Origin: a bacterium
Lineage (GTDB): Bacteria > SAR324 > NAC60-12
Reading direction: 5' to 3'
DNA length: 45,301 nt
NCBI GenBank assembly: GCA_965233585.1
Contig: CBDDTI010000530.1
Span: 1-45,301, forward strand
Below are positions 5,601-38,396 of the stretch, in pieces. Each line of letters begins with the position of its first letter. Position 1 is the stretch's first letter. The notes under the pieces are model-generated. The model worked only from the letters and a program-made list of their open reading frames with translations. It did not search any database and was not told the DNA's origin. The translations under genes and the position numbers were made by a program.

Positions 5601-5875
5601 CCTACGTATGTCTGCCACCAGGAATTTCCATTCATAAATCCGGCCTCCTATATGCATCTGCAATTTCCTTTCGCCATAGCATTTGATTCGGGAACCATTT
5701 GCGGCGATGAGTTCTTTTTTGAAGCGGCGTGCCTTGCCTCTCTTGCTCCGATGCTGGCACGACGCTGACCTCGGCTCCGGTATCGATCAGGAAAGCCCTG
5801 TTCGTTTTTGCGTCGTGTAGGGTGAGCGAGCCGGCCGCTACGGACGCTACTGGCGACCGGCTATCCCGTTTTCCA
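2700..5875 (-). pseudogene. pol: Gypsy pol pseudogene (PR-RT-RNaseH-IN)
   Basis: FLIDTGAEVS protease (5632-5892 ORF), YMDD RT and TADAS RNase H (4323-5663), HHCC + DDE integrase (3135-4292). Frameshift near 5715-5735, stops at 4323 and 3135. The GPY/F module continues past 3135. Left bound approximate. Confidence 0.9.
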
Positions 5876-11598: not shown

Positions 11599-14500
11599 CG
11601 TCAATCGCGGCCGGCTCACTAACCCTACACGACGCTAGTTCCAACAAAACGTTCCTCATCGACACGGGAGCAGAAGTCAGCGTCGTGCCCGCAACCGAGC
11701 AGGAACGGAGAAAGGCACCAATGGAAAAGGAACTGGTCGCAGCTAACGGGTCACGGATCAGGTGCTACGGGGAGAAAAAGGTCAGGTTTCACGTTGGCTC
11801 CAGGACGTACGAATGGAAATTTCTGGTGGCAGACGTGAAGAGGTCTCTCATCGGTGCGGATTTCCTGACCCACAGCTCTCTGCTGGTGGATCTGCGCAAT
11901 AAGCAAATGGTTCATCCCGATGACTTGAACGCAACGCCTCTACAGCAGACGAAGCATAGGTCCCGGATAAGCGGGCTGACGTTCGCAGCAAGTGCAAGGC
12001 CGTCCCCGTTGTCCAAGTTGTTCGCCGAGTTCCCGACGGTCACAGTGCCAAACTTCAAGATCGAGCATCCGAAGCACGCGGTTAGGCATACGATCGAAAC
12101 GCGTGGACAGCCAATCAGGGCCAAAGCAAGGCCATTGCCGCCGCAGAAGCTGGCAGCAGCGAAGGCGAACTTCGCCGAGATGGCGGCCTCAGGCATAGTT
12201 AGACGATCAAACGGACCATGGTCGTCGCCGTTGCACGTGGTTACAAAGAAGGACGGTACTTTCAGAATGTGCGGAGACTATCGCAGGCTTAATACCGTCA
12301 CGACGCCAGACCGGTATTCCATACCGCTCATTGCCGACTTAACCTCACGACTGCAGGGTAAGAAATTTTTTGGCAAAGTCGATCTGGTAAAAGGTTATCA
12401 TCAGATTCCCGTAGCCGAGCAGGATATCGCTAAAACGGCGATAACGACGCCGTTTGGGACGTACGAGTTCCTTCGAATGCCGTTCGGGCTAAAGAACGCA
12501 GGTCAAACATTCCAAAGAATGATGGATGAAATCCTGAGCGACCTCGATTACCTGTTCGTCTATATGGACGACGTGTTGGTAGCCAGCCGTTCCATGGAAG
12601 AACATTTGGAACATTTTCGCGAACTATTTCGAAGGCTGACCGCCCACGATTTAGTAGTAAGCCCGGCCAAGTGCCAATTCGGCAAAAAGCAGATCGAATT
12701 TCTAGGCCATACTGTCACGAAAGACGGCATACAGCCTCTGCCCGAAAAAGTAGCTGCGATAAACGCGTACCCAGTACCGTCCTCGATGGACGAACTGCGA
12801 AGGTTCCTCGGCATGGTTAACTTCTATAACAGATTTATACCAAACGCCGCCAAGATTATGAAGCCATTATATGAGGCCACGACGGCTGAGAACTGCAGAA
12901 AGCAGAAAAATGGCAAGGAAAGGGCATGCACAGAGCTCAAAACGAGCAAAAAGCTAATCGAATGGAACGACGAGATGCGGAAAGCGTTTCTAGAGGCCAA
13001 AACGGCCCTGGCAAAAGCCACGATCCTCCGCCATCCCAGACCGGGAGCGGAAATCGCGCTGAGCACGGACGCGTCAGGCGAAGCCATAGGCGCTGTATTG
13101 CAACAGCGGCCAAAAGAAGGTGGCGATTGGGAGCCATTGGCCTACTTCAGCAAAAAGCTGAACCCGCCCGAAAGAAAATACAGCGCATTCGACCGAGAAT
13201 TGCTAGCAGTTTATCTGGGAGTTCGCCATTTCCGGCATTATCTCGAAGGACGCGACTTCCCGATTTTTACCGACCATCGACCTCTCACGTTTGCGATGGC
13301 AAAGGCTGCCGAACCATGGTCACACAGGCAGGCCAGGCACCTGGAATACATTTCGCAGTATTCGACGGACATCAGGTATGTTGCAGGTGCAGACAATGCC
13401 GTCGCAGACGCATTATCAAGGGCTGCCATTGAAGAAATCCGGCTAGGCATTGACTTTAGCAAAATGGCAGAACTGCAGAGACAGGATCCTGAGACGAGGG
13501 CCTACAAGACGTCGGTCACGGCGTTGAGATGGGAGGAAATCGAGGTGTCCAATGGCCAGCAAAAGCTGCTATGCGACGTTGCTACGGGTGTTCCAAGGCC
13601 ACTTGTGCCAGCGGCGATGCGGCGCGAGGTTTTCGATTTGGTGCATGGCCTATCGCATCCAGGAACAACGGCCACGGTAAAGATCATGAAGAACAAGTTC
13701 GTGTGGCATGGCATCGCAAAAGACGTCTGGGCTTGGGCAAGAGCCTGCATTGGATGCCAGACGGCGAAGATCCATCGTCATAACCGGGCGCCATTGACCA
13801 AGTTCGAGAGAGCGACCGCACGGTTCGCGCACGTTCACGTCGATCTGGTTGGTCCATTGCCAGCGTCAAAGGGACATACGCATCTCTTAACGGTAATCGA
13901 TAGGTTCACCAGATGGCCGGAAGCGATCCCGCTCGCCCAGACAGATACCGCATCGATAGGCAGAGCCTTCGCACTGCATTGGGTAGCTAGATTCGGCGTA
14001 CCTTCAGATATCACATCAGACCGAGGAGCTCAGTTCACGTCAGACATGTGGAAAGCTCTCGCAGAATCGCTGGGATCCAAAATCCACCATACCACAGCCT
14101 ACCATCCACAGTCGAACGGCCTGGTCGAAAGATTCCACAGGTCGTTAAAAGCAGCATTGAGAGCCAGGTTAACGACGCCATCATGGTTGGACGAGCTACC
14201 CTGGGTCATGCTGGGACTGAGGACCATGCCGAAGGAGGATTTGGGCACGTCGGTTGCAGAGATGGTCTATGGATCAACGTTGACGGTACCCGGAACCTTT
14301 GTGGGGCCTAGCAGCAATTCGGACGCAGCCGAGCATCTGCAGAATATGAGGAACATGGCCGGACGACTTGTGCCAGCACCGGATGCATGGCATGGAACGA
14401 AGGCCATAGCCATTACAAAAGGTTTAGACGAAGCAGAGTACGTTTTTGTGAGACGAGATGCTTCGCACAGTCCGCTGCAAACGCCGTACACGGGTCCATA

Positions 14501-14711
14501 TAAAGTCCTACAGAAACAGGGTAAGTACTTCGTCATACAGTGCGGAGAGAGAGAAGAGAGCGTTAGCGTTGACAGATTGAAGCCTATTATACAGCGTATT
14601 ATACACGGGCGCACATTATACAAGGGTAAATACGGTAATTGGATTGTGATGTCATTTAGCTATTTAGCAAAATTACAGTCCATATTATGTAAATATTTAC
14701 ATAAAAAATAA
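11508..14711 (+). CDS. pol: Gypsy Pol polyprotein (PR, RT, RNase H, IN); last ~40 codons are read-through into non-element DNA
   Basis: DTGA protease, YMDD, STDAS, H..H..C..C zinc motif, VDLVG/SDRG/NGLVERFH integrase, PYTGPY module. Confidence 0.93.
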   Translation: MRVPRVLRTICNQVPFTMQSGGKRESRASVASIAAGSLTLHDASSNKTFLIDTGAEVSVVPATEQERRKAPMEKELVAANGSRIRCYGEKKVRFHVGSRTYEWKFLVADVKRSLIGADFLTHSSLLVDLRNKQMVHPDDLNATPLQQTKHRSRISGLTFAASARPSPLSKLFAEFPTVTVPNFKIEHPKHAVRHTIETRGQPIRAKARPLPPQKLAAAKANFAEMAASGIVRRSNGPWSSPLHVVTKKDGTFRMCGDYRRLNTVTTPDRYSIPLIADLTSRLQGKKFFGKVDLVKGYHQIPVAEQDIAKTAITTPFGTYEFLRMPFGLKNAGQTFQRMMDEILSDLDYLFVYMDDVLVASRSMEEHLEHFRELFRRLTAHDLVVSPAKCQFGKKQIEFLGHTVTKDGIQPLPEKVAAINAYPVPSSMDELRRFLGMVNFYNRFIPNAAKIMKPLYEATTAENCRKQKNGKERACTELKTSKKLIEWNDEMRKAFLEAKTALAKATILRHPRPGAEIALSTDASGEAIGAVLQQRPKEGGDWEPLAYFSKKLNPPERKYSAFDRELLAVYLGVRHFRHYLEGRDFPIFTDHRPLTFAMAKAAEPWSHRQARHLEYISQYSTDIRYVAGADNAVADALSRAAIEEIRLGIDFSKMAELQRQDPETRAYKTSVTALRWEEIEVSNGQQKLLCDVATGVPRPLVPAAMRREVFDLVHGLSHPGTTATVKIMKNKFVWHGIAKDVWAWARACIGCQTAKIHRHNRAPLTKFERATARFAHVHVDLVGPLPASKGHTHLLTVIDRFTRWPEAIPLAQTDTASIGRAFALHWVARFGVPSDITSDRGAQFTSDMWKALAESLGSKIHHTTAYHPQSNGLVERFHRSLKAALRARLTTPSWLDELPWVMLGLRTMPKEDLGTSVAEMVYGSTLTVPGTFVGPSSNSDAAEHLQNMRNMAGRLVPAPDAWHGTKAIAITKGLDEAEYVFVRRDASHSPLQTPYTGPYKVLQKQGKYFVIQCGEREESVSVDRLKPIIQRIIHGRTLYKGKYGNWIVMSFSYLAKLQSILCKYLHKK
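11571..11620 (+). other. -1 ribosomal frameshift signal (gag to pol)
   Basis: Slippery heptamer G GGA AAC (11571-11577) in the gag frame; pol is in the -1 frame; downstream GCCGG..CCGGC stem. Confidence 0.8.
14585..14637. mobile_element. End of a pogo/Tc1-like MITE family
   Basis: TTATACAAGGGTAAATACGGTA terminus, also at ~16280-16301 and, inverted, at ~43397-43470. Confidence 0.6.
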
Positions 14712-15152: not shown

Positions 15153-15376
15153 TTGTCCTACCTCAACTATGAGGCGCTATCTATTACATTATCTGCTCAT
15201 TAAAAAGGGCGGTTTTGCTTAAGAGCTATTCAAAATTTTGTACCATGTTGTTTTATGTATGGGCTACTCAAAGAGATTATAATAGTAACATATAGAAATA
15301 TGCTATAGCGTACAGCTGTGGTATAAAAGTTAAGTGGAGCTTCAATGCATGGTAGTTTTCTGCCTGAGTACCCTAA

Positions 15377-15572
15377 GGGCTTGTCTAGACCGAAACGTGT
15401 GTGTTTGAAACGAGTGTCATGCTTCACTACAATGTATGTAGTAAAATGATGGAGAAGGGAAGAAACATTTGGCATCCCACATGTTTCTTCCCTTCTCCAT
15501 CATTTTATTACATACATTGTAGTGAAGCATGACACTTGTTTCAAACACACACGTTTCGGTCTAGACAAGCCC
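15377..15572. mobile_element. PIF/Harbinger-type palindromic MITE
   Basis: GGGCTTGTCTAGACCG..CGGTCTAGACAAGCCC, near-perfect hairpin, TAA TSD on both sides (15374-15376, 15573-15575). Confidence 0.85.
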
Positions 15573-15774
15573 TAAGACCGCAGTCAACCTTTTCCTCCAT
15601 TCCCACACTTCCCACCAAATTGATATTTCCGTACCCTTGCATAATGCGCACTTTTTTTCCCCAAAATGAACACGTAAATACGAGATGCGTATTATACACG
15701 GAGTCCTTTATTTAGTAAAACAAAGAAAATTTTGGTCTGAAATTTGGGGGTGGGTATTATACACGACGGCGCAT

Positions 15775-16278
15775 AGGTGTGTTAGATTTGCCGTTTTTAT
15801 TTTCCACTGGGCTGTCGTGATATGATTCAGCTACTATGCTTTTAGGCAAAACCCACCTCTGTAAATGTTTCCTTTATTGCCCTGTAAGTTCTCTAATATC
15901 TCTGATTATTAGTTATATCATGTCTCAATAATTGAATGCTTAAGTTTTATTAGCAAGAAAAAAAATTATAAAAAAATGTTGAGAAAAAGGCCTCTTTTGA
16001 TGGCCCAAAAACTCTACTTATTGCCCTATAATATTTAGAGTTTTTGGGCCATCAAAAGAGGCCTTTTTCTCAACATTTTTTTATAAATTTTTTTTCTTGC
16101 TAATAAAACTTAAGCATTCAATTATTGAGACATGATATAACTAATAATCAGAGATATTAGAGAACTTATAGGGCAATAAAGGAAACATTTACAGAGGTGG
16201 GTTTTGCTTAAAAGCATAGTAGCTGAATCATATCACGACAGCCCAGTGGAAAATAAAAACGGCAAATCTAACACACCT
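15775..16278. mobile_element. ~500 bp foldback element nested in the pogo-like MITE
   Basis: ~242 bp near-perfect inverted arms (15775-16016, 16036-16278) with a 19 nt spacer. Partial arms recur at ~18010-18149 and ~20684-20889. Confidence 0.85.
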
Positions 16279-16891
16279 ATTATACAAGGGTAAATACGGT
16301 AAGTTGCCTGCTGAGTGAAAGAAGAGATGTTATTTTTGACAGCTTGGGAGATTGAGCTGATTCTTGGCATCTTGGGTTGTCAAAAAATTGTATCACATGC
16401 TGACCATAATTGGATTTGTGACATCAATTTTATGTAACAAAATTACGCTTCATTTGAAGCACATTTCAACTTAAAAATATAATTATGGTCCATTTAACTT
16501 TTTGTTTGACACTACCACTCTCACTTAACTTTTAAAGGGGATTTGGGGCAACTGTACTTTTCACGAAAACACTTCAGTAACTTTTAAGGAGACCTAATAG
16601 TTCTTGTGCTCAAAGTGGGGAAAAGAGATTTGAGAAAAACCACCAGATGGAGCTGCAGTTGCCTGAGCTGAGTTATGTAGTTGTTCCGTCCTTTCTTCTT
16701 TTCTGTATATGATATGATAAATGGCTTACTTACACAAAATTTTGACTAACAAGGTAAAAATAATTTTTGCTAGAGGATGTATCATTTCCAATCCTTAACA
16801 GGCTTTATTAATAAGTTTTCTCTGAAAAACTGATAACAGAAAAGTCATTGTAGTAGTTAGGACAGATTTATGAAGTAAAGTTTCTGCTGAC

Positions 16892-17923
16892 CAAAGACAT
16901 TATATACACATAGACCTCTACCTAAGAAGCCTGGGAGTCCAGGCCCTATGAAAATTACACCGGGTCGAGTTTGATATACTAATCAACATTTTATCCTTCT
17001 TTTGTTTTTGATTTTTGCTGTGTAAGGGGACAGAAAGGGGAGAGAAAAAAAGTGCTGCGTGCTTTGCAACCACCACAACGCAAACTTCAGCTTCACGCAG
17101 CTTCAAAAAAAAAAGTGCAGTGTACGGTGCACTTCACTAGGGTGAGTCAAAATTTTCAACCCCTCTTACCATGCAAATATATAATGTGAAATGCTATTTT
17201 CTACTAGAAACCCAGGTTTCATCTTATTTCTTGTTGAAATGAGGGTGTGACCAGGCTTTAAAAAATTTTATAAAAAGAGGCAAAATTGAATTTTTTTCAG
17301 TAATGCGTGATTTCCCGCAAAATTTCAGGGAAAATTCTTCCTACCAATGCCTGCCAAAAAATGCCTTATTAAGTTAGTAAGTTCCCTTATTAAGTTATTA
17401 AGACAAATGTAATGTAGTAAAAAACTACTAATGACTAATATATTTAAAAAATGACTAAGCTATTATTTTTCCGTAAAAAGGAAGCTCAACTTTGAAAAAA
17501 TTAGCTAGAGAAACTTTTTTTCAGAATTCATTCAAACTCGTGGCGCACCCCCAATACAGCAAAAAATGAGCTGAAACTTGGAACTCTGGTAGAAAATAGC
17601 AATTCACATCATATATTTGCGTTGTGGGAAGAGTTGAAAAATTTGACCAACCCTAGCGCTTCACGCAGCTAAATCTAGAAGAAAAACGGGAGAGAAAGGG
17701 GATTCCCAGAGATCAACTTAATTAAGCTGCGTGCGTTGCAACGGAACTCATGCAGCTTCAAAATAAATTTCAAATTTAGAAGAAAAAGGGGATGAACGAA
17801 GAACCCCCACTACATTCTAACTTAGCAAGTAACTAGATTTTTTGGAAGCGGCCCGTTGAGCTTAATATTAGGTGGGGACCCTTTGGCTAACCCTTAACTA
17901 GACATGTGTATATAATGTCTTGG
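16892..17923. mobile_element. Non-autonomous P/hAT-like element containing a second TIR element (~17138-17656)
   Basis: 20 bp TIR C(A/C)AAGACATTATATACACAT; 8 bp TSD CTGCTGAC (16884-16891, 17924-17931). Inner CTAGGGT..TCAAA.TTTTCAAC inverted pair. Confidence 0.8.
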
Positions 17924-18342
17924 CTGCTGACATTGTGCACCTTATGCATTATAATTTGGCCTTGATTGGTCCTGTAGTTTGTTTGTGACTGATCAAAAAC
18001 TAACTGCCATAGGTGTGTTAGAAGTGCCGTTTTTATTTTCCACTGGGCTGTAGTGATATGATTCAGCTACTATGCTTTTAAGCAAAACCCACCTCTGTAA
18101 ATGTTTCCTTTATTGCCCTATAAGTTCTCCAATATCTCTGATTATTAGTCCATTTGCCCAAATTTTACAATAAATTCTCTCAAGTAAAGAGAAGGAAGGA
18201 GCATAGATAATTATAGCTAGAGGTGAGTTAAAGAAGCCAAAGCAGGCAGAATCAGAGCAGGCAGAAGGTAGCTTGGGCTGAAATCTGGCAGAAAAAGCAC
18301 TTTTTACCCTATCTATGCTTTTGCCTTTTACCTATCTATGCC

Positions 18343-18560
18343 CATCGAAATGCATAGGTAAAGAAGGTGCACCAGCTGTTACCTCGACTGTAATTTCTTT
18401 ATGCAGTAAAAAAATCTACACACCAAGCAGGCGCGTAGCTGAGAACCCCTTTGGAAAACCTCAGCTACGCGCCTGCTTGGTGTGTAGATTTTTTTACTGC
18501 ATAAAGAAATTACAGTCGAGGTAACAGCTGGTGCACCTTCTTTACCTATGCATTTCGATG
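18343..18560. mobile_element. Perfect palindromic MITE, P- or hAT-like
   Basis: 101 bp identical inverted arms, 16 nt spacer, CAT..ATG termini, 8 bp TSD TCTATGCC (18335-18342, 18561-18568). Confidence 0.9.
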
Positions 18561-18936
18561 TCTATGCCTTTTACTTTCTACCTTTTAAAGAAGGTGAAGC
18601 ACACAGAGTACTATTATGTACAGTATAATATATCTATGGCAAAGCAGGCAGGCAGAATAACAGCAGGCAGAAGCTAGCTTGGGCTGAAATTCGGCAGAAA
18701 TCCTCGCCGGAAATCCGGAAACTCAACGCGGTTGAAAGTATGGCCAACGTGAACGCGAACGGGATCGGAAACTACTACTTACAGCTTTAGATCGTTAAGT
18801 ATGGCCTACGTTAACGTGAACGGGCGTTGGTCGCTAGGTAAATGCGCCAAAGATTCGGATTCGATCAACGAATATAAAAGCTTCTCTTTTTTAGCGAATC
18901 TTATCTGGAAAAGATCCAACTTTTTTACGTGAACCA

Positions 18937-19171
18937 CGTCAACTACTACGTCAACTACTACGTCAACTACTACGTCAACTACTACGTCAACTACTACGTC
19001 AACTACTACGTCAACTACTACGTCAACTACTACGTCAACTACTACGTCAACTACTACGTCAACTACTACGTCAACTACTACGTCAACTACTACGTCAACT
19101 ACTACGTCAACTACTACGTCAACTACTACGTCAACTACTACGTCAACTACTACGTCAACTACTACGTCAAC
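18937..19171. repeat. Perfect 12 bp minisatellite (CGTCAACTACTA) x ~19
   Basis: Read directly from the sequence. Confidence 0.97.
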
Positions 19172-19534
19172 AAACTACGGCAATTGGTCGCTAGGTAAAT
19201 GTGCCAAAGATTCGGATTTGATCAACGAACTACTACTAAAAGCTTCTCTTTTACGTTTTTTTAGCGAATCTTACCTGGAAAACGATCCAACTTTTTTACG
19301 TGAACTAAGCCAAACAGAACAACAACTACTACGAGACTTTGATGACGATGAAATTACCGAAATTCGGACTGTCCATTCTCATTTTTGAAAGCCAAACAGA
19401 AGAGACCTTTTAGACTGGTATCCTTCATTTCCTACCTGTTTATTGTCTAAAAATATATTTGAACCAAGTAAACTCTAAAACAAGTTTTCTCCGAATCGGC
19501 GTGAAAACGTCTTTTTCTTGTCCATTTTTTAAAC

Positions 19535-20291
19535 TCTTGAAATGAACTCAGCTTAGGTAGCCTTTTTAGACTTCTATGGCCTACGTTGTTCAACCCAGGC
19601 CTTATCTTGAAATGAACTCTGCGTGAAGGCCAGCGTTTTTAGACTTCGTAAGCTGCCTTATCTTGAAATGAACTCAGCTTAGGTAGCTTTTTTAGACTTT
19701 CGTAAGGCCCACGTTGTTGAACCCAGGCCTTATCTTGAAATGAACTCCGCTTAGGTAGCTTTTTTAGACTTCGTAAGGCCTTATCTTGAAATGAACTCAG
19801 CTTAGTTAGTCTTTTTTAACTTCGTAAGGCCTTATCTTGAAATGAACTCGGCTTAGGTAGCTTTTTTAGACTTCGTAAGGCCACGTTGTTGAACCCAGGC
19901 CTTATCTTGAAATGAACTCCGCTTAGGTAGCTTTTTTAGACTTCGTAAGGCCTTATCTTGAAATAAACTCAGCTTAGGTAGCTTTTTTAGACTTCGTAAG
20001 GCCTTATCTTGAAATGAACTCAGCTTAGGTAGCTTTTTTAGACTTCGTAAGGCCACGTTGTTGAACCCAGGCCTTATCTTGAAATGAACTCAGCTTAGGT
20101 AGCTTTTTTAGACTTCGTAAGGCCTTATCTTGAAATGAACTCAGCTTAGGTGGCTTTTTTAGACTTCGTAAGGCCACGTTGTTGAACCCAGGCCTTATCT
20201 TGAAATGAACTCAGCTCAGGTAGACTTTTTAGACTTTAAAACGTTGTTGAATCCTGGCCTTATCTTGAAATGAACTCAGCTCAGGTAGCTT
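19535..20291. repeat. Tandem array of ~49 and ~69 bp units
   Basis: AGGCCTTATCTTGAAATGAACTCAGCTTAGGTAGCTTTTTTAGACTTCGTA, with or without AGGCCACGTTGTTGAACCC. Confidence 0.93.
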
Positions 20292-20958
20292 AAAAGGATA
20301 TCTCCCGATCTCCGGACTCTCACTCTTCTCTGAAACTCGTCGTCATTGCCTTTGAACCTTGGGCCAAAAGTGACGAATGCATTCACCTCGGGGAGAGAAA
20401 GTCTCCAGGTCCCAAACTTTCAAAGATCGCCTTAAAACTGTACGTAGTTCACGTCCACGTTCGCGTTGGCCTCACTTTCAACGATCGATCAACTTGCCGT
20501 ACGTAGTTTACTTGAATTCAACGATCGTTAAAAACTTAAAAACCCGAATCTCCGCCATCTTTTTCAGTTGAGTAGGCTCTAGTCCAGGCTAGTAGAGAGA
20601 GAAATAGTGAGGGAGAGGGGTTTTTGAGTAATGTGTAATGTTTTGCCCGATCCCAAATATTGAGACTCAGAAAAAATGGAAATTTAGAGTTTTTGGGCCA
20701 TCAAAAGAGGTCTTTTTCTCAAAATTTTTGTTATAAATTTTTTTTTGTAATAAAACTTAAGCATTCAATTATTGAGACATGATATAACTAATAATCAGAG
20801 ATATTAGACAACTTATAGGGCAATAAAGGAAACATTTACAGAGGTGGGTTTTGCTTAAAAGCATAGTAGCTGAATCATATCACGACAGACCCAAGGTTGC
20901 CAAAAAAAGGCACCAGATGTTGTTTCTAACATACCCATTGGCATAACTCCCTTCAATT

Positions 20959-21085: not shown

Positions 21086-21629
21086 GTAAAAGCGGATGAC
21101 AGAAACTTGTTTTTAGATGTTTTCGGCCCGAATTCATCTAAATTCATCTAAATGCGTTCTAAATTCATCTAAATTCATCTAGATGCGTTCTCGTTGCAAG
21201 CAAAACGTCAACTGATTCAATCTAAAATCATCTAAATGCACACCGATTTCTGGTGCGTGCACCAAAAGTTTGGTGCCTGCATGGCTGTGTCTAATGCTGG
21301 CATGAAAAATTTGGTGCGTGCACGAAAAGTTTGGTGCCTGCATTGCTTCGTCTAATGCTGGCATGAAAAGTTTGGTGCGTGCATGAAAAGTTTGGTGCCT
21401 GCATTGCTCCGTCTAATGCTGGCATGAAAAGTTTGGTGCGTGCATGAAAAGTTTGGTGCCTGCATTGCTCTGTCTAATGCAGGCATGAAAAAGTTGGTGC
21501 ACGCACTAAAAATTTCATGCACGCATCAAAATTTTACTTGTCTGCATTACTTTTTCTGGTGCCGGGATCTCAATTTTGATGCTGGCGTGAAATTTTAGAT
21601 CCCGGCACCAGAATGTCAGTGGTCCATAG
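21086..21629 (+). repeat. Left terminal inverted repeat (544 bp)
   Basis: Reverse complement of 41120-41724; contains AATTCATCTA 10-mers and four 61 bp units. Confidence 0.95.
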
Positions 21630-22010
21630 TTGAGTAAATTGGAGAAAAGAAGCAGAGCTTTTTTCTTTTTTACCATAACTGGTGTTGCAATGTCACAATG
21701 TTCTTCTTCATTTTGTGTAAATTTTCTTGCTGTAATGGTATCAGTAAACGAGCGATTTTTATCAATAATTTAATGTGATTTTTATCAATAATTTAATTAA
21801 TTGTGTTTTTTGTTTTTAGCACAAAAAGGTTTTATATAAATTTGATTTCTCGAAAAAGTTGTATGGTTCCTTGGTATTTTTTACCATGCAATTTTAATTT
21901 TTTCCAAAAATCACCTTTGAACTGACCGCGATTTTTTCTGGTGTTTTCTACATAATATTTTTGCGCAAAGCAGATGTTTCCTTTTTTGTTCTTTTTATAA
22001 ATTCTTCCAA

Positions 22011-22183
22011 TTTCTAGAACATTCCTATCATTTAGAAACAATTAGGATTGGAGGTATTTTGTAAAAGAATTTTTTAATTTTTGACAAGATGCATTTTTCA
22101 ACCTGTCCGCAATTTTTTCTAGGGTTTTCTAGAAAGTTCCTTTGTAATAAGGTATATAAGCAGCCTGAACATCACATTTCATT
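22011..22183 (+). promoter_or_regulatory. Putative Pol II promoter: two heat-shock elements, TATA box and Inr
   Basis: TTCtaGAAcaTTC (22012-22024); TTCtaGGGttTTCtaGAAagTTC (22117-22139); TATATAAG (22153-22160); TCATT (22179-22183); ATG at 22221. Confidence 0.7.
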
Positions 22184-22220
22184 GCATTTCAAATCCATCA
22201 CTTGAAAAATCAACATCAAC

Positions 22221-22832
22221 ATGACTGACGAAACAGGAATTAGAGACATGTCTGGTTATAGATCCATCATTCCTCCATTCCCAGAAACGCAGATGACCGA
22301 GTCCTGGATGAAAAACGATAGTCAGATGACAATAGCAAATTCTTCACCCGTTACAAACGATGAATCGGAAAATAGTGACACGAGTGGTTATAAAACAATC
22401 ATCCCTCCATTTCCTGAAACTCAGCCGACTGATGCCTGGATTGCCGATGAAAATCAACCAAAAATAGAAACTCCGAATCCATTGTCTTACACCGTACCAA
22501 ACTGTTTTAATTGGTCACCGTTGACGCACCAAAGGTCTTACCATGTTAAAAACATTCTAGAGAATTTGATGGCAAACGTCTCTTACCTCGTTTTTGAGCT
22601 CGAAAAACTAAAGTTGAGTTTTCCCATTGATATGACTCGTGAAGATGCTCACAAAGAAGAAAAGTTATTGGAGAGATCGATTGAAAAATTTCGACAAATG
22701 GCTAGACAGGCGAGAAAATTAAAGAGGGAAATTATGGGTATGTTAGAAGATGGGGTGTATGTTAACCCGCAAAATTACAACCGCTCCAAATACTCCGCGG
22801 CCGCTTCTCTTGAATTTGAAATACAAGAATGA
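22221..22832 (+). CDS. Hypothetical protein with duplicated N-terminal motif and C-terminal coiled-coil-like region (203 aa)
   Basis: ATG ORF after a TATA promoter; SGYRSIIPPFPETQ / SGYKTIIPPFPETQ repeat. Confidence 0.75.
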   Translation: MTDETGIRDMSGYRSIIPPFPETQMTESWMKNDSQMTIANSSPVTNDESENSDTSGYKTIIPPFPETQPTDAWIADENQPKIETPNPLSYTVPNCFNWSPLTHQRSYHVKNILENLMANVSYLVFELEKLKLSFPIDMTREDAHKEEKLLERSIEKFRQMARQARKLKREIMGMLEDGVYVNPQNYNRSKYSAAASLEFEIQE

Positions 22833-23083
22833 GTTCCCCCCGCCAAGACAATTATCAAGTGGCAGACGTGACAAACGTTACCGCCGCCCCCAACATCACA
22901 ACGAACGCCATTAACAAGATTGTAATTAACACCTTGGATAAACTCCTATCGTCGTCAGATAATACAAGAACCTCAACCCCATTTATTATAATGGCATTAA
23001 TTTTTTTCTTGCTCTTTTCAACCGTAGGAGCATTCTACGCTGCTTGGTCAGAACCAGACAAATCAGAAAATGATAATGTTTAA
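22829..23083 (+). CDS. Small single-pass membrane protein (84 aa)
   Basis: ATGA overlap with the upstream ORF; hydrophobic FIIMALIFFLLFSTVGAFYAAW segment. Confidence 0.65.
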   Translation: MSSPRQDNYQVADVTNVTAAPNITTNAINKIVINTLDKLLSSSDNTRTSTPFIIMALIFFLLFSTVGAFYAAWSEPDKSENDNV

Positions 23084-24747: not shown

Positions 24748-25827
24748 TTACGCCTGATTAATAACGTTATCTTCCGCAATCCAGCTAAGGTTTTTATAGC
24801 CTTTCCACTTGACCAACACCAACTTCTGCCCGGTTCTTTTATCTTTCTTCCTTTTAACAATTTTTTCAATGTGAAATAATTCCGGCGGCTTGGCCAGAGT
24901 CAGCTCATTAGCATAAAAATTTCCCTCTACCGTCTCGTCACCGTCCAGAGTTTCCAGTTCGTATGTAGGTATGGGTAATCGCGTAAACACCCGTTTGATC
25001 TTGTAAATTTCTTCAGTAAATTGCTTATTGTAACCTCTGTCAAATTGAGCTCTGTAGTTACTTATTCTGACCGTCTGGCCTTTCTTAAATTTAGGCGGTC
25101 GCCTCTTTATTTTCGCATAAGCCTCTTCTTGTTTCATTCGGACTTTGGGCGCGTTTTTTGCTTTTTCCGCTTCAGCCGGACTCATACCGATCATTCTATG
25201 TACGCGCGAGTTATACGTCTTTACTAAAGATTGAAGCACGTGGATAAATCGATCCGTACCCCTAGATGTCATATATTTAAACATTAGACTTTTTAGAGAT
25301 CTGTTAAATCTTTCCACAAACGGCGCGTGCACAAAGTTGTCGCTGTGTAAAAGAGTAATGCCATTACGTCGACAGTAGTCTTTAAAAAATTTATTTTTGA
25401 TCTCTAACCCTCTATCAGCTAGAATTTTTCGAGGCGGCTGGCCAGCCTTATTGACAATGGTTTTGAATCCTTGTAAAAAAACCAAAGCTGTCTTGTTTTT
25501 TATGGGTTCAACAAAGGCATATCTCGAAAAAATGTCGATCGCTGTCAGCAAGTAACGATAATTGTCATTCGCGCTTGCCATTTTTCCAATTTCAACCAAG
25601 TCTATTTGGAATTGATATCTTTTGTAATAAACATAGGTTGGGTTCCTAGGTTTTGGAGCCCTAGGTTGTCGGTGCAGAGTATAGGTGTCTGACGCCTGCA
25701 GCCATTTCTTTATTTTATTTATGGGTATGGTCCCGTTAAAATGATTAAAAACGCGGTTCGGCGATGAAAAAGCAAAAGGCGAGCCGGGCGATGTGTAAGC
25801 TTTTAAAAATTCGCGTTTAGTAATCAT
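24748..25827 (-). CDS. int: Retroviral-like (rve) integrase with C-terminal chromodomain
   Basis: YTLHR, FQIDL, IDIFSR, ADRG.E, VERFNR, YN...H..IGMSP; tail IEKI...LVKWKGY..SW. First ATG at 25827 (ORF open from 25857). Confidence 0.95.
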   Translation of the reverse strand: MITKREFLKAYTSPGSPFAFSSPNRVFNHFNGTIPINKIKKWLQASDTYTLHRQPRAPKPRNPTYVYYKRYQFQIDLVEIGKMASANDNYRYLLTAIDIFSRYAFVEPIKNKTALVFLQGFKTIVNKAGQPPRKILADRGLEIKNKFFKDYCRRNGITLLHSDNFVHAPFVERFNRSLKSLMFKYMTSRGTDRFIHVLQSLVKTYNSRVHRMIGMSPAEAEKAKNAPKVRMKQEEAYAKIKRRPPKFKKGQTVRISNYRAQFDRGYNKQFTEEIYKIKRVFTRLPIPTYELETLDGDETVEGNFYANELTLAKPPELFHIEKIVKRKKDKRTGQKLVLVKWKGYKNLSWIAEDNVINQA

Positions 25828-26245
25828 CCTCGTCGTCGTCGTTGTCGTCCTCAACATAAAACAGCGGTTTTTGTTTTGTTTTTCTTCTCTTACCGCTTCC
25901 TACCGCATGCGTGCTATTTTTTCTCTTGACCGGTCTCTTGGACGCCTGTGCAGGCCTACTCGCCTTACCAGCCAGTAAGATGTTTCTAGTCGCGGATTTT
26001 AATCTCTTTTTCGCAGCGGCTCCAACTGCTTTGCCGTCCAAGGCTTCCAGTGCGGTGTCAATGGCCGCTCGTCCCGCCTCTTTTTTCAAATATCGTCCTG
26101 CGGATCTGACACCCTCGCTTCTCGCAATTTTACCGATTGTCTTTGCGGCGCCCTTCGCCACCGGAACCAACGACCGGAAAAGATTGCTAAAAATTGAACC
26201 TAATCCCGCCCCAGCTTGCACAGACGGACCGCGGTGGTATCGCAT
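25817..26245 (-). CDS. Small basic virion core / membrane-active protein (142 aa)
   Basis: QAGAGLGSIFSNLFRSLVP motif (GxG protease-type site followed by an amphipathic helix), as commonly seen in Polintons. Confidence 0.8.
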   Translation of the reverse strand: MRYHRGPSVQAGAGLGSIFSNLFRSLVPVAKGAAKTIGKIARSEGVRSAGRYLKKEAGRAAIDTALEALDGKAVGAAAKKRLKSATRNILLAGKASRPAQASKRPVKRKNSTHAVGSGKRRKTKQKPLFYVEDDNDDDEDDY

Positions 26246-26248
26246 ACT

Positions 26249-26971
26249 TTAACAATTTTCAATTTTTTTGACGCACCTGCTTAAGGCCATCGGACTAACG
26301 CCTAATTGCTCGGCTAAACGTGATAAGCTTTTCGGCTTTTCCTGATCAACCCTACTCCGTTGTTCTCTTAAAAAGACGTGCGCGCATGCCGCGATTAGTG
26401 TTTTTGGCGAAAAAACAAACTTTTTTTCGTGTTGCTTTACTTTCTCTCTAATTTCCTTCAACTCCTTGTAGCTTAGATTTAAAGAGTGAAGAAAATATTC
26501 GCACATTAAATTTGGGCTGTAGAAAGAGTCGTCGTTTTTAAGATATTGCCACACTTTGTCCTGCTTGACGCCGGTTATGGCACATAAATCTTTCATCGGT
26601 CGCGGCACCCCCGACTCTATAAGCGCGGAGTAGATGCACATTACCGCTAAACTTTCTAAACAAACACCTCTTTTCCCTCTTTTCCCGCTAGCGTCCCATT
26701 TTTTGGCGATGACGCGTTTTAAATCCGCGCATTCGATATTGCACTTATAGCATACCCTTTGCATTGTCTCATCAGTAAAATTGTTTTTGTCGCAAGTCAC
26801 ATCCTCGCTCATTTTCTCCGTTTTAATCGATTCGAGCCGATAGTCATACGAGGCATAGAGCCGATCATGCATCACGAGCCCGCAATCTGTACATACTTCA
26901 CACCCGTTTGAAAAATCATCCACAATATTGTAATGAGAACAAGTCCTGTTGAAATTATGAAAGCGAGGCAT
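26249..26971 (-). CDS. TFIIB: TFIIB-like transcription initiation factor (240 aa)
   Basis: Zinc ribbon CSH..VDDFSNG.EVCTDCGLVMHDR; two cyclin-like repeats LAVMCIY....GVPRPMKDLC and SPKTLIAAC...LAEQLGVS...LSR. Confidence 0.88.
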   Translation of the reverse strand: MPRFHNFNRTCSHYNIVDDFSNGCEVCTDCGLVMHDRLYASYDYRLESIKTEKMSEDVTCDKNNFTDETMQRVCYKCNIECADLKRVIAKKWDASGKRGKRGVCLESLAVMCIYSALIESGVPRPMKDLCAITGVKQDKVWQYLKNDDSFYSPNLMCEYFLHSLNLSYKELKEIREKVKQHEKKFVFSPKTLIAACAHVFLREQRSRVDQEKPKSLSRLAEQLGVSPMALSRCVKKIENC

Positions 26972-27014: not shown

Positions 27015-27575
27015 CTATCGATCGCTTTTATATTGTTTCAAAAAATCTATAATAAAGTCCAAACTATGTTTGACCGCATCTTCGGACTTGGCCCCGATGA
27101 TTACCATCTTGCCTGTGGAAAATATTAAAACCGTGTTGGCTTCAAAAGTCACAAACATGCCCGGGAAACGTTCGGGATTGAAGCGTACTTTTTTCACGTA
27201 GCTCTCCTTTCGAAGTTTATCAAAAACGTCCGGCAGCGGTATCTCAAAGCCCGCACGAAAGGAACAAGTTAAATTGTTTATTTCCCATGTTTGCACAAAG
27301 AAACGATTGCTGATAATGTCCGTCAGCAGACTTAACGATATTTTTATATCCGCTCGCGACGGCACTTTGGTAATATTGACATGATATGATTTGTTGTTTC
27401 CGCGGGTCTTGAAAATGGTGTAGACGTATTGTTTCCTCACTACAGTAAAATTACTAAAAACTTTTTGTGACACATCTTTATTTAAGGATAACGGCCCCTC
27501 ATCCGTAAGAATAATTGTGCAGCTAAGCTTTATATTTGTCACAGTGACGTGCTCCGTGTTGTCTAAAAATGTCAT
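27015..27575 (-). CDS. TBP: TATA-box-binding-protein-like factor (186 aa)
   Basis: Two-repeat core: VTNI.LS...NF....YTIF...VNIT and INNLTCS...FNPERFPGMF...TVLIFSTGKMVIIGAKSE. Confidence 0.9.
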   Translation of the reverse strand: MTFLDNTEHVTVTNIKLSCTIILTDEGPLSLNKDVSQKVFSNFTVVRKQYVYTIFKTRGNNKSYHVNITKVPSRADIKISLSLLTDIISNRFFVQTWEINNLTCSFRAGFEIPLPDVFDKLRKESYVKKVRFNPERFPGMFVTFEANTVLIFSTGKMVIIGAKSEDAVKHSLDFIIDFLKQYKSDR

Positions 27576-28909
27576 CGTTGATTAATGGCGGTGTCGGCGG
27601 TTTAAATGTGGATTTCAATGAATTGCAGGGTGATAGTTTGAATGCGCATGCGACCCCCCTCGAAGACACGGATTTAATATCAGGTCGTACTGTGCTATAT
27701 AATAGCGTGACTCCCGTCGAAGATTTAGAAGATGTTACGTTTTCAATTCCTTCCGACCCCGAATGCGCTTTTGTTTTAAATCAGACGAGGCTAGAGGGTT
27801 ACTTTGTGGTAAAGACCGACAGCGGCGAGGGTGTAACAGACACTGACACGCCAACAATTACTAACCATTATTGCGCCGCATTATTCTCGCAAATTGAAGT
27901 CCACCTTAACGGAACTCAAATATGTGATTTGAGTGCTCCTCTTTCTTATTCGTACAAACACCACATTGACTTTCTCCTGTCCTATAACAATAATGTATTA
28001 ACAAATGTGGGACGGTCCGAAGGCTTTTGCCGAACGCACCACGACAAATGCTTTGACAATATTACCACGACCGGTAAAATGTGCCAATGCATCGCGGAGA
28101 ATCGCGCGAAAATAATAAACGACAAAAAAGTTTATTTTAGCTCAACTTTGCCCGCAGATATTTTTTACACCGACAAATATTTACCTCCGAATGTGGAAAT
28201 CACTGTTGTATTACGCAGGTTCAACCCGTGTTTCGGGCTGCTTCAAGATAATCCGAACAAAGTCTATCGCATTCGTTTAAAGGAATTAAAACTTCGCATG
28301 AGAAAAGTGTTACCGTGCGAGCGTGTGCGAAACAGGCTAAACGCCGAACTGCTAAAAGGTCGACCATTTTTTCTGCCTTTTAAAGACACGCAGATGAAGC
28401 ATTATCTGATCCCGTCTGGTTCCCTTAGTTTCTCTGCAAATCACATCAACAATAGCGAGATGTTGCCGCAACAAATTATTTTCTGCATGCTTCGAAGCGA
28501 CCTTTTTGCCAAGGGACCGAGCGATCAATTTCCCTTTAAATTTAAACACGCCGATTTAGGATCCGTCATTTTAAAAAACAATGGAAGACTTCTCATGCCT
28601 AGACCTATAGAATGCAAGATACTTACAGGCGATTATATGGAATTGTACGACCATTTTCAAAGCAACGTCGGCGGCAGAAATTGTATTTCACCCCAAGCTT
28701 TTACAGAGGGTCAGATGTTTCTCGCGTTCGACCTGACTCCGGATAAATGCCTATCCTTTCACAATCACGTCGGAGTGTCCGGAAATTTAGAACTAGACTT
28801 GACTTTTAACACCCCCACCAGAACCCCCCTAACCCTGATTTCTTACGCTATTTATAATGCCGCCATTTCCATCGACAGCAACCTTCAGGTTACCAAAATA
28901 AAATATTAA
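27569..28909 (+). CDS. Major capsid protein 1 (double jelly-roll, PY-like; 446 aa)
   Basis: LFSQIEVHLNG, ADIF..DKYLPPNV, LKLRMRKV, PF.F.H, AFDLTPD, GNL.L.L.F motifs; position next to the protease. Confidence 0.88.
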   Translation: MSSLINGGVGGLNVDFNELQGDSLNAHATPLEDTDLISGRTVLYNSVTPVEDLEDVTFSIPSDPECAFVLNQTRLEGYFVVKTDSGEGVTDTDTPTITNHYCAALFSQIEVHLNGTQICDLSAPLSYSYKHHIDFLLSYNNNVLTNVGRSEGFCRTHHDKCFDNITTTGKMCQCIAENRAKIINDKKVYFSSTLPADIFYTDKYLPPNVEITVVLRRFNPCFGLLQDNPNKVYRIRLKELKLRMRKVLPCERVRNRLNAELLKGRPFFLPFKDTQMKHYLIPSGSLSFSANHINNSEMLPQQIIFCMLRSDLFAKGPSDQFPFKFKHADLGSVILKNNGRLLMPRPIECKILTGDYMELYDHFQSNVGGRNCISPQAFTEGQMFLAFDLTPDKCLSFHNHVGVSGNLELDLTFNTPTRTPLTLISYAIYNAAISIDSNLQVTKIKY

Positions 28910-28978
28910 AATTGCACACCACCGACTCCCTCTTTTTAAGAAGAACAGAAAACTACAGACTAGCATGCATTTTCGACA

Positions 28979-30313
28979 ATGACTGAAAAGGGTGGCATCG
29001 GAGGTCTAGGGTTCGAGCAGGACGATTTGACAGAACAAGCTCTTGATCTGCACGCGCCGCTCGGGGTCGATATAAGCCTTGAAAAAGGCAATGATGTGGT
29101 CTACAACAGCGTTTCCAGCGTTTCAAACACCGGACCGATCGAATTCATCATCCCGCGAGACGAAGAGTGTTCCATCATTCTGGATCAGACTAGATTAATA
29201 GGGCATTTCGTTGTCAAGACAGCAAAGGATGAAAATGTCGGACCCGACGATCGAGTCTTTCTGGCCAATAATTTCGCGAGCAATCTATTTAGCGCGGTTG
29301 AAATCTACATTAACGGTACTCAAGTCTGCGACTTGAGCACGGCAAATTCCTACCCTTTCATAAACTTTATCCAGACCGAGTTGTCGTTTGATAGAGAGGC
29401 CAAACAGAGTCAGCTAAGAGCCGAAGGTTATTTTGAAGAAAAAGAAAACGATATTGGAGCTTGCGAGCCCGGTATAAATCAGCGTTTAATACACCGTCGA
29501 AATCTTATACTTCACGGCAAAAAAGTTTATTTCTGCTCTCGATTGGGGGCGGATATTATGTATACGGATAAGTATATGCCACCGAATGTCGACATCAAGA
29601 TTAAGCTTATTAGAAACAGTCCGACATTCGGTATTCTTCACGCCGAAGATGACAAATCTTTTAAAATCGTTTTAAAGGATTTAAAGTTGAAAATGAGAAA
29701 AGTTTTGCCGGTCGAGCAGCAGAGAAAGCAATTTAGGATGAAAATGTCTCAACAGCCCTGCTATATACCCTTTAAGCTGAGTCAGTTGAAGGTTTTTGTG
29801 ATTCCAGCCGGCGTCACATCGTACACCGTTACCAATATTGCCTCACAAATACTGCCCAAACAAGTTATTTTCACCCTAATTCACAACCAAGCCTTGACGC
29901 ACGATAGCAAATTCAACCCGTTCGACTTTCAACACTTTGATCTTAATTATTTCAATCTTATTAAAAACGGACAATGCGTCTTCCCAAAAGCTTTTCAGCC
30001 GGATTTTGATGATGATAACTACATGGACCTGTACAGACACATGTACGACAGCACGGGTTTCGGCATTTCAAATAGTTCTTGCGACATTTCGCCCGCGGTT
30101 TTTAAGAGAGGAAGATGTTTTCTAACTGCCGATTTGACCCCCGATCGCTGCAACAGTTTTCACATTCACCCCGACGAAAAAGGCAAGTTGGATTTGGAAT
30201 TAGGCTTTAAAACAGCCAAGCCTCACCCCATCTACCTGCTAGCCTACAGCATTTTTAATTCCGGAATTAAAATAGAGGAGAACGGCCAAGTTGTTAGGGC
30301 CGAAGAGCGATAA
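28979..30313 (+). CDS. Major capsid protein 2 (paralogue; 444 aa)
   Basis: GPIEF.IP, LFSAVEIYING, DKYMPPNVD, NPFDFQHFDLN, DLTPD motifs; colinear with MCP1. Confidence 0.9.
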   Translation: MTEKGGIGGLGFEQDDLTEQALDLHAPLGVDISLEKGNDVVYNSVSSVSNTGPIEFIIPRDEECSIILDQTRLIGHFVVKTAKDENVGPDDRVFLANNFASNLFSAVEIYINGTQVCDLSTANSYPFINFIQTELSFDREAKQSQLRAEGYFEEKENDIGACEPGINQRLIHRRNLILHGKKVYFCSRLGADIMYTDKYMPPNVDIKIKLIRNSPTFGILHAEDDKSFKIVLKDLKLKMRKVLPVEQQRKQFRMKMSQQPCYIPFKLSQLKVFVIPAGVTSYTVTNIASQILPKQVIFTLIHNQALTHDSKFNPFDFQHFDLNYFNLIKNGQCVFPKAFQPDFDDDNYMDLYRHMYDSTGFGISNSSCDISPAVFKRGRCFLTADLTPDRCNSFHIHPDEKGKLDLELGFKTAKPHPIYLLAYSIFNSGIKIEENGQVVRAEER

Positions 30314-30798
30314 TGGCCGGTTTGAGCAACGTATTTCTAGATCGGTTTTTATCCCCACTTTGCAAGAATTTCATCGGCACCTTTGCAGTCGACACGATAC
30401 CTTCAAACTTGTGGAACACTAGCTGTTGCGCCATCGTCAATCTTTCGGTTTCAAGCCATCCCGGCAGTCATTTCATCGCCTTTTTTATTAATAAGCAAAA
30501 CTATTTGTATTATTTCGACAGCTATGCACTACCCGTGCCCGCCTATAATCACCACCTCATCCATTTTTTGAAAAAATGGGAAAATTGCGGCAGAATAAGA
30601 CATGTCCTGGACCGATCGATTCAAGCTTTCGATTCATTGTTTTGCGGGTGGTATGCTGCCGCATTCTGCATGTTTGTCAATGCATACGCAAACGCGAATC
30701 CGCGGCACTTTTGCACTTTTTTTAATCCCGTTAATTTACGCGAAAATGAAAAACGCGTCAAACATTTAGTTAATTGTTTGCAAGTCAAGCTTTATTAG
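30313..30798 (+). CDS. Adenain/Ulp1-like cysteine maturation protease (161 aa)
   Basis: IVN......GSHF (His), YFDSY (Asp), IQ.....CG.Y (Gln, Cys); TAATG stop-start overlap with MCP2. Confidence 0.93.
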   Translation: MAGLSNVFLDRFLSPLCKNFIGTFAVDTIPSNLWNTSCCAIVNLSVSSHPGSHFIAFFINKQNYLYYFDSYALPVPAYNHHLIHFLKKWENCGRIRHVLDRSIQAFDSLFCGWYAAAFCMFVNAYANANPRHFCTFFNPVNLRENEKRVKHLVNCLQVKLY

Positions 30799-30921: not shown

Positions 30922-32134
30922 TCACTTGCCGCCGAGTTTGGCATTGATGGGGAAATCCAGACCTTGACACAGCTCCACCATACCCTCGGTAAATTCATCC
31001 AACTTGTGCAGAGGAAAATTCATCCTAATTATCTTGGTGCTGTGGCTTTTGTTGTTGTCGTTATACTGCGGGAAAAAAGATTTTTTACGCATTTTTCCGC
31101 TCAATTTTTTTCTATTTACATTTTTATTTCGCCTTACCTGCTCTTTAGAGACGTAAAATACCGGCCACACGCTAAGGCCCGCAGCACGCTGGATATGCCT
31201 AACGCCGCTAACTCCAATTACCATCCTAGGGTTGGATGCAATCACTTTGCTCATGGGGGCAAAAGGCAAGCTCACCGATCGCGATGACACCTCCTTGTTT
31301 TTAAAAGCCTCAATAAACTTTTTCATGGTGGCTGGATTAGGGTAGATGTACTGTTGAGCAAAACAGTGTGAAAAGTTTTTTAATTAAAAATACGCTGAGC
31401 TGATTTCAAACTGTTTTACTCACCCCGTCGTCTCCAATAAAATATTGTTCGCGATGGCTGTGGCTTTCAAGCCACTTGGAAAAGTTTACCTCCGCGGTTT
31501 TTACGCGCTCGTTAAAATCCCATTTGCAGGGTCGAAACAACTCCTCTTGCTTTTTCCTTGTCAAATTAATCCCATCCACCTTGGACGAAACCGGCTCCGG
31601 CTCGACATAATTTTTCCTCTTTGAATCGGGTAATTTCTTTTTGCCTGAATCGGACCTTGGTCTTTTTTTCGCGCAATACGGCTTTCTTTGATCCTCCATC
31701 TCCGGTTCTTCAATATCAGTCGGAGCATCGTCATCATCTTCGTCATCATCGTCATCCTCGTTATCATCTTGGGCAGCATCAGACTCAACATCGTTATCAT
31801 CGTTATCAGAGCCGTCTTGCATGTTCTCTGAGCCGGATTCTTCAGACTCGTCATCGCTTGAATTCTCGTTGTCTCTCATGTCCTCATCCTTCTCCATGTC
31901 TGAGTCGGAATCTTCTAATTGCTTATGTCCTTTGTTCGCAGATGACGAACGGGATTTGGCAAGTTTACTACTTTTTTGCTCTTTGGTGTAAACTTTTGAC
32001 GTTTTTTCAACGTGGCTTTTTTCGAACGGTGTCTTTTTCGCGACCTTTTTATGCGCAGACTTCCCCTTTTTTTTGTACAAGATCGTCTTGCTGCCTTTGC
32101 CATTGCTTTCAGATGATGTAGCCAGTTTACCCAT
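30922..32134 (-). CDS. Predicted spliced gene (exons 32134-31424 and 31350-30922; 379 aa) with basic/acidic low-complexity N-half and globular C-half
   Basis: GTGAGT donor at 31423 and CAACAG acceptor at 31351 (73 nt, phase 0) join two ORFs in frame: FIGDDG|YIYPNPATMKKF. Confidence 0.75.
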
Positions 32135-32215: not shown

Positions 32216-32337
32216 CTTTTATACTATTTTGACTTGTATAATGGCAAATGCTAGAATATTCTCGATGAAATTGTGGTCAACTTTTAACCCATTTTAAGGC
32301 AAAAAAAGTTCTAGAAGAAACTAGAAAAATCTAAAAG
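32216..32337 (-). promoter_or_regulatory. Putative Pol II promoter: TATA box with upstream heat-shock elements
   Basis: Minus-strand TATAAAAG (32223-32216); CtaGAAtaTTCtcG (32251-32264); TTCtaGAAgaAACtaGAAaaATC (32309-32331). Confidence 0.62.
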
Positions 32338-33259
32338 CAATTATTTTTATAAAAGTTTTTGAAAAAAATTTAAAAATGCTCATTTCTATTTTTTTGTCGG
32401 TAAAATGACCTAAAATTAGGGCATCTTTTGTAAAATGGAGAATTTTTTCCTCCTTTTTAGATGCTGCTCCTTGGCACGTGCTTTTTTTTTCTCACTTGAG
32501 CTAATGGTTTTTCTGCCTAATGGTTTTCAACGCTAATTTTCCTTCCAGAAAATTGTCATTCTTTATTTCTTTGACCGCAAAAAAGGGTGCAAAGACCCGA
32601 TTGTTAACCTTTTAATAATTAATCTTTTTTCCTTTTGCTGATTTATTTTAATGGGTGTGCTGCTAAAAAATTGACTGTTGTTTAAAAGAAAAACAATTTT
32701 TAGCAAACACGCTGTCTCATATCTTGTCATTAATTTGCTCCAATTTCGGCGCTTTTGCTTTAAGCCTTAATGCATGTGCGGAAAAATGAACAAAAATAAA
32801 GGAAAATTGCACGGAAAACACAATCTGACGTCAGGTTGCGGGGATAAAAAGGATTTACAAGAAAGGTTAAAATTTTCTCCAAAATTAATTATCTTTTGAA
32901 AAAAACCAGGTTTAATTTTTGCGCCTTTTTCTACTATTAAAAAGTTTACATGAATGACCCTTTTTGAGATAAGGAGTCATTCCAAAATCTAAACTGAAAC
33001 CGAAAAGATCCTAGTTTTATCTTTTAGACACTTGAAAAAATCGTAAGTAGACAAAAAAGTCTTTACAATTTTTAAACATTGAAGTTTTTTTAAAAATATT
33101 TTTAAACATAAAGTTGGTTAAAGTCTAAAAATTTTTTACACAAATTGAGCTTACGCAAAAAAAATTTAACAAGTGCTCAAAGTCTTAAAATTTTTTACCC
33201 AAAATTGAGCTTACGCAAAAAATCTTAAACCTGATTTCAACCACCCTGCTTTCTAGACA

Positions 33260-38333: not shown

Positions 38334-38396
38334 ACGTATTGATAAAAATTGATGGTAATATCTTGTCTCTTTTTTGTGTCAAGAAAAATTAAAAAC

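Follow-up and report, generated by a model that had tools for sequence, protein, structure and literature searches.

The 240 bp preceding ORF1, the first gene within the left terminal inverted repeat (TIR) of a Maverick/Polinton element, probably act as a functional, host-type Pol II promoter of the heat-shock class that responds to heat-shock factor (HSF). Two perfect three-unit heat-shock elements (HSEs) lie 115 bp apart beside a TATA box, and the arrangement suggests that cell stress switches ORF1 on. The element covers ~20.6 kb (21086–41724) of the window, the whole 45,301-nt stretch that was analyzed, which is animal-type DNA.

The HSEs, the TATA box and the initiator-like motif were read directly, and they lie, to the base, where the original prediction had placed them. 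The distal HSE (TTCTAGAACATTC, 22012–22024) and the proximal HSE (TTCTAGAAAGTTC, 22127–22139) each match at 9/9 positions. Each perfect trio is the contiguous part of a longer array, on the plus strand like the other features of this promoter. The distal array (TTCttCCAatTTCtaGAAcaTTC) extends over 22002–22024, with 4/5 units perfect and 13/15 positions matched, while the proximal array (TTCtaGGGttTTCtaGAAagTTC) extends over 22117–22139, also with 4/5 units perfect. In both, one of the five units is bad (TTC-N7-TTCtaGAAnnTTC), and a unit-by-unit scan of the window found no other five-unit array with at least 13/15 positions. In the proximal array, the perfect HSE is preceded by TTCtaGGGtt, starting at 22117. 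The TATA box TATATAAG (22153–22160) follows the proximal HSE after 13 nt (22140–22152), and an Inr-like TCATT (22179–22183) is positioned 26 nt past the TATA start, with the predicted transcription start near 22181. When numbered from TCATT, the proximal array occupies about −64 to −42 and the distal array about −179 to −157. The predicted leader of ORF1 is 40 nt long, with 17 A and 2 G, and contains no ATG. A TATA box with TCAKT 25–30 nt further on is also found before the TFIIB-like and C2H2 genes of the element, indicating that the element uses ordinary host-type core promoters. Upstream of the element's 17 genes, nothing convincing was seen as a shared "late" promoter word.

The placement of this promoter depends on the ends of the element. 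An inverted-repeat search together with end alignment gave a left TIR at 21086–21631 and a right TIR at 41118–41724. The arms are ~550–600 nt long; leaving aside a 61-nt unit that is extra in the right arm, their identity is about 98%. The internal tandem units of ~61 nt (..GCATGAAAAGTTTGGTGC..) occupy 21251–21526 on the left and 41223–41559 on the right. The TIR ends showed no clear target-site duplication. Judged by its near-identical TIRs and by a sister ORF1 protein that is 99% identical, the element is a young Maverick. From where the left TIR ends on its inner side (~21631) up to ORF1, the DNA is unique, T-rich and 28% G+C. With the arms at 21086–~21631 and ~41118–41724, the left TIR thus has ORF1 as the first gene on its inner side, and the promoter belongs to unique DNA rather than TIR; the TIR arms and the position of the 203-aa ORF agree with the earlier assignment of the promoter to this gene.

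The promoter region was built by a tandem duplication of ~181 bp (repeat spacing 181; 21860–22010 aligned with 22045–22200). Missing from the upstream duplicate copy are the 14 nt containing the TATA box, and the positions of the two perfect HSEs are not equivalent between the duplicate units. In that upstream copy, the counterpart of the proximal HSE block (TTCtgGTGttTTCtaCATaa, 21922–21963) is decayed, a 76% copy of 22103–22144. A conserved block (..CTGTCCGCAATTTTT) at 22094–22116 abuts the proximal HSE on its upstream side. Written as CTG(T/A)CCGC(A/G)ATTTTT, this block is found both there and in the tandem duplicate at 21916–21936, as well as in the relative P0013. It may be the site of a second factor.

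Relatives of ORF1 provide a view of how this promoter has been kept. Conservation was judged from those relatives' proteins that translate their own upstream DNA. There are 27 relatives, with 52–99% identity, and four of them begin at an upstream ATG and continue in frame across their own promoter, over 23 aa in P0009, 40 in P0011, 54 in P0013 and 78 in P0020. No longer ORF1 forms with more upstream read-through were found. Numbered back from the ORF1 ATG, TATATAA in the window is at −68, the proximal HSE at −94 and the distal HSE at −209. All four read-through relatives have a translation compatible with TATATAA at −65/−66. A perfect three-unit HSE is compatible at the homologous place in each of the three relatives that reach it (P0013, P0020 and P0011), where compatibility by chance is ~1e-3 per nt. 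In P0013 the compatible site is at −94 (FSRNF; the window translates as FSRKF). In P0020 it is at −92, in a different reading frame (FLENS against FSRKF in the window). P0011 is also compatible at −92, in the other phase, with one codon inserted in the array and one particular Leu codon required. A second perfect site is compatible at −193 (LSRKF) in P0020, the sole relative that reaches far enough.

The shifted frame of the proximal HSE in P0020 indicates that the DNA motif, rather than the peptide, has been retained. At 56% protein identity, the residues that P0020 has in common with the window (FF, FLE, S, V, YI) coincide with the units of the HSE and with the TATA box. P0013 is a closer relative and is conserved across the whole proximal region, including the upstream block (window FFNLSAIF, P0013 FFELSAIF, 7/8), so the HSE stands out less there. 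Because peptides do not give codon choice, "compatible" is a weaker statement than "present". With this reading of the term, the HSE and the TATA box appear to have been kept in diverged relatives.

A second HSE-like promoter belongs to a gene for a lysine-rich, acidic protein of 242 aa (31406–32134, minus strand). Its TATA box TATAAAAG (32216–32223, minus) is 89 nt before the ATG, and an imperfect four-unit HSE-like site (32249–32266, minus; 10/12 positions) is located 25 nt upstream of the TATA box. Further up is a third array, TTCTAGTTTCTTCTAGAA (32309–32326, minus), with the layout TTC-N7-TTCtaGAA and oriented towards its own gene as the ORF1 arrays are. The sites at this promoter are imperfect and the design is weaker than that of ORF1. 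The array at 32309 (minus) and the ORF1 array at 22117 both read TTCTAG-N4-TTCTAGAA, with 14 specified bases in common. Recent copying of one promoter from the other was considered and rejected, since their likeness in alignment is confined to the HSE core. The 242-aa protein has 24 relatives; the nine examined include one with an N-terminal extension, which at 7 aa is uninformative on the promoter. This gene may be stress-responsive too, judging from its upstream sites. HSE-like sites with at least 8/9 positions were not found before the integrase, polymerase, capsid-like and ATPase-like genes.

Other features of this central region concern gene structure. The 242-aa ORF has a GTGAGT donor just ahead of its stop, through which several relatives read, and the protein of relative P0039 runs on into the sequence of a 134-aa ORF (30922–31326). 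From these sequences, the two ORFs are probably spliced together as two exons of one gene. Two direct repeats of ~60 nt (..AAAGTCTAAAAATTTTTTAC.CAAATTGAGCTTACGCAAAAAA..) are present at 33117–33225, just upstream of a 256-aa proline-rich gene at 33260.

ORF1 (22221–22832, plus) encodes 203 aa. Most relatives begin at the counterpart of its ATG at 22221, with MTDETGIRD conserved, and an in-frame TGA is found upstream in the window. An AlphaFold model, poor overall (mean pLDDT 55), shows residues 1–100 as disordered, with a repeated IIPPFPETQ.TD.W, followed by two long helices at 103–133 and 143–177 that form a helical hairpin. Searches with ORF1 gave no Pfam or PHROG match, no PDB relative and no Atlas look-alike, and its PDB profile matches had E about 1 at best. 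Judged only by position and composition, we infer that ORF1 is an early or regulatory protein and not a structural one. An 84-aa ORF with a hydrophobic stretch (22829–23083, plus) overlaps the ORF1 stop; the stop of the one and the start of the other coincide as ATGA (22829–22832), an unusual layout for eukaryotic genes. The two ORFs are possibly on the same transcript.

These features can be assembled into a mechanism. Under heat or proteotoxic stress, a host HSF trimer would bind each of the two inverted nGAAn arrays, and the bound HSF would act on the TATA box and the Inr-like start. The predicted outcome is a rapid burst of the leftmost transcription unit, with ORF1 and perhaps the overlapping 84-aa membrane-type ORF, while the central gene at 31406–32134 (minus) would perhaps respond more weakly. 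From sequence we infer binding by HSF, induction by heat, the position of the start, the part played by ORF1 and any effect on the remainder of the element. In a fuller cascade, stress, through HSF, would raise expression of the adaptor-like and disordered protein ORF1 on the integrated copy, and transcription of the replication and capsid genes would next pass to the TBP-like and TFIIB-like factors that the element itself encodes. We consider this eukaryotic counterpart of prophage induction unlikely as a whole, and clearly less probable than the HSF-responsive promoter on its own. The proposal that the endogenous virus is wired to host proteotoxic stress is thus partly supported. The promoter anatomy is improbable by chance and apparently kept in relatives; the element-wide step would have to start from arrays at ORF1 and possibly at one central gene only.

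Functional HSF sites could also serve another occasion than stress. HSF has developmental activity, and the predicted HSEs might support early expression on infection, or constitutive, germline or developmental expression, in which case induction by heat would be a by-product. This possibility draws on the same sequence evidence as stress induction of an integrated copy, and the sequence does not separate the two. The location of the sites, at the leftmost unit and perhaps one central gene, is what would be expected of an early gene and not of a whole-genome switch. Virus entry itself activates HSF in other systems. According to the accessible parts of the literature, HCMV depends on HSF1, and herpesviruses use HSF at their lytic-switch promoters. 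We give this explanation a minor share, as much as the full cascade, and the heat-shock-class promoter with stress as its signal is the reading that we carry forward.

It is less probable still that TTCTAG-N4-TTCTAGAA is the site of a different factor and resembles an HSE by coincidence. DNA-binding proteins are encoded by the element, and candidates for such a role are its C2H2 zinc finger, its TFIIB-like protein with a helix-turn-helix, or a host factor other than HSF. The 14 specified bases shared by the arrays at 22117 and 32309 go beyond the nGAAn rule and so exceed what HSF needs, which leaves room for another factor, and the conserved upstream block directly abuts the proximal site. However, the distal array (TTCTTC..TTCTAGAA) is without the first TTCTAG, as is the translation of the most diverged relative, P0020 (F-F-R-F-F-L-E). 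Both keep TTC at the unit positions, as fits unit-by-unit recognition. In addition, the 2-nt spacing between TTC and GAA is that of HSF sites and distinguishes them from STAT sites.

The frequency of HSEs was compared with shuffled sequence at several scales. On both strands, the window holds three perfect three-unit sites (618, 22012 and 22127) against 1.0–1.2 expected, a number reached in 17/100 and 7/100 shuffles. At ~2.5e-5 per position, close to the estimate of ~1e-5 made beforehand, the bare count is not significant. Clustering gave a different result. A non-overlapping pair within 150 bp arose in 11/3000 dinucleotide shuffles of the whole window (overlaps excluded), and the local 549-bp non-coding, T-rich region has two sites against a mean of 0.011, with a P for at least two sites of 1e-4 to 1.5e-4 (20,000 shuffles). 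The claim that two such sites are unlikely by chance is therefore upheld by their clustering but not by the window count. The layout TTC-N7-TTCnnGAA has four matches in the window against 1.02 expected, with four reached in 1/100 shuffles, and three of the four are in element promoters (the two ORF1 arrays and 32309–32326). TTCTAGAA alone is found three times against 1.23 expected, which is not significant. Inside the element, all six sites with at least 8/9 positions fall in two long non-coding promoter regions that make up ~8% of its length. The HSE motif was picked post hoc among many possible motifs, so the relatives and the third array weigh more than the P values. That T-rich non-coding DNA merely spelled two HSEs, helped by the tandem duplication and without a regulatory role, is the least probable explanation and a very unlikely one: the unremarkable window total, the 28% G+C, the ~181-bp duplication and the post hoc choice of motif speak for it, but the perfect sites are non-equivalent in the duplicate units with the upstream counterpart of the proximal HSE decayed, local shuffles give P near 1e-4, and relatives down to 56% protein identity fit at the homologous place, once in a shifted frame.

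The ORF1 promoter resembles those of animal hsp70 and hsp16 genes. Like them, it has at least three contiguous inverted nGAAn units, a proximal array just upstream of TATA, another array some 115 bp beyond it and a leader that is short and A-rich; the likeness is to the typical hsp70 spacing. ORF1 differs from hsp70 and hsp16 in being a 203-aa protein without a known family on a mobile element and not a chaperone, and direct reading of 21940–22180 showed no GAGAG/CTCTC elements in its promoter. A captured host hsp70 gene was considered and rejected: ORF1, which matches nothing in Pfam, PHROG or the PDB and has no look-alike in the Atlas, is not a chaperone, and so no hsp gene has been captured here.

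Parallels also come from other mobile elements and from latent viruses. The Arabidopsis LTR retrotransposon ONSEN/ATCOPIA78 reportedly holds an HSE in its own promoter, and heat is said to activate its transcription. ONSEN is a plant element with a single promoter for its whole genome, whereas the Maverick has many promoters and HSEs on one or two of them. Caenorhabditis Helitrons, DNA transposons like the Maverick described here, carry HSEs usable by HSF-1, according to the accessible part of the report (PMC6927752). As described there, non-autonomous elements spread the Helitron HSEs, which alter the regulation of host genes close by, whereas those of the Maverick are in the promoter of its own first gene. 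Gammaherpesvirus lytic-switch promoters are regulated by heat-shock factors (PMC12047821, accessible part), and these latent DNA viruses thus have host HSF input on an early regulatory gene promoter, as proposed here. They are episomal herpesviruses of vertebrates with characterized transactivators, ORF50 and BZLF1, whereas the Maverick is integrated and its product ORF1 is of no known family. The mavirus virophage, a Maverick relative, is silent in its host genome and has a specific transcriptional trigger, with the integrated form being reactivated by giant-virus infection (10.1101/068312, accessible part). In that system the trigger is a co-infecting giant virus, in contrast to the host stress factor proposed for the Maverick. 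In a literature search with subscription journals outside its range, no paper was found that links heat-shock elements to Maverick/Polinton; the one paper in which all three terms co-occur is a plant-transposon review (PMC5056178). HSE-bearing transposons and viruses are already known, and an HSE on a Maverick promoter was not found reported.

A heat-shock-type promoter on a young copy provides a concrete and cheap hypothesis. To our knowledge, the regulation of animal Maverick/Polinton elements is essentially unknown, with no particles seen and no inducing signal known. Should the promoter work as proposed, the HSF theme of mobile elements and latent viruses (Helitrons, ONSEN, herpesviruses) would extend to a new element class, and ORF1 would become a candidate early regulator. 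Should the full cascade hold, the so far missing signal by which a "transposon" becomes a replicating virus would be heat or proteotoxic stress, and an inducer would have been named for an animal Maverick for the first time. If neither holds, these sites are one more convincing-looking but idle consensus match. The question of what switches an animal Maverick on becomes directly testable with transcript data.

The remaining genes of the element are largely those of a Maverick. The polymerase frame (pPolB, 34765–38333) is in four pieces and matches PF03175 in two of them (E 2.6e-7 and 5.3e-6). The first of its three gaps, the one checked, is a 75-nt GTAAGT..TTTTAG intron (35961–36035) that keeps the frame. 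The integrase (24748–25857, minus) has an rve domain (PF00665, E 1.9e-10) and a chromodomain just below the cut-off (24.4 against 25.1 bits). In place of one major capsid gene, capsid-like tandem paralogues of 446 and 444 aa are present (27569–30313, plus), and they are 39% identical. These proteins have no Pfam or PHROG match; their Atlas look-alike cluster scores 0.98, comprises animal taxa and has PF21738, double jelly-roll (DJR)-like, on 15% of its members. The ORF at 38352–39083 matches ATPase_2 weakly (E 0.0027, below the cut-off). The ORF at 30313–30798 has no Pfam or PHROG family match, and its position and an H..D..Q..C pattern make it a candidate maturation protease. The C2H2 zinc-finger protein is encoded at 34127–34762.

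The element also has general transcription factor genes. A TBP-like gene (27015–27575, minus) matches PF00352 with E 1e-16 and the archaeal TBP structure 1mp9 with 3e-17. Next to it is the TFIIB-like gene (26249–26971, minus), with a zinc ribbon below the Pfam cut-off and a match to human TFIIB at 2e-6; a TATAAAAG and a TCAGTT belonging to this TFIIB-like gene are found within the end of the adjacent TBP-like ORF. In the accessible part of an adintovirus paper (PMC8502044), a figure legend names a TBP-like gene. In our search, no publication dealt with a TBP/TFIIB pair in Mavericks.

The flanks of the element are rich in repeats. Rfam and tRNA scans of the window gave no hits. On the right, outside the element at 42902–43274, six near-HSE matches come from a repeated TTCC(T/G)GAAGGTCC word, which has the look of a tandem or dispersed repeat and not of a promoter. 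Two diverged LTR retrotransposon copies lie to the left, at 2723–5657 (minus) and 10837–14711 (plus). Their pol regions (2947–5874 and 11571–14554) are 72–80% identical in inverted orientation, and one of the copies has a DUF7041 gag-like ORF. Between these and the element, 15373–20891 contains near-perfect, hairpin-like inverted repeats with short loops and arms of 100–204 nt that are 92–100% identical. These look like MITE-type elements, and copies of the hairpin repeat are common to 15773–16280, 18009–18149 and 20685–20891.
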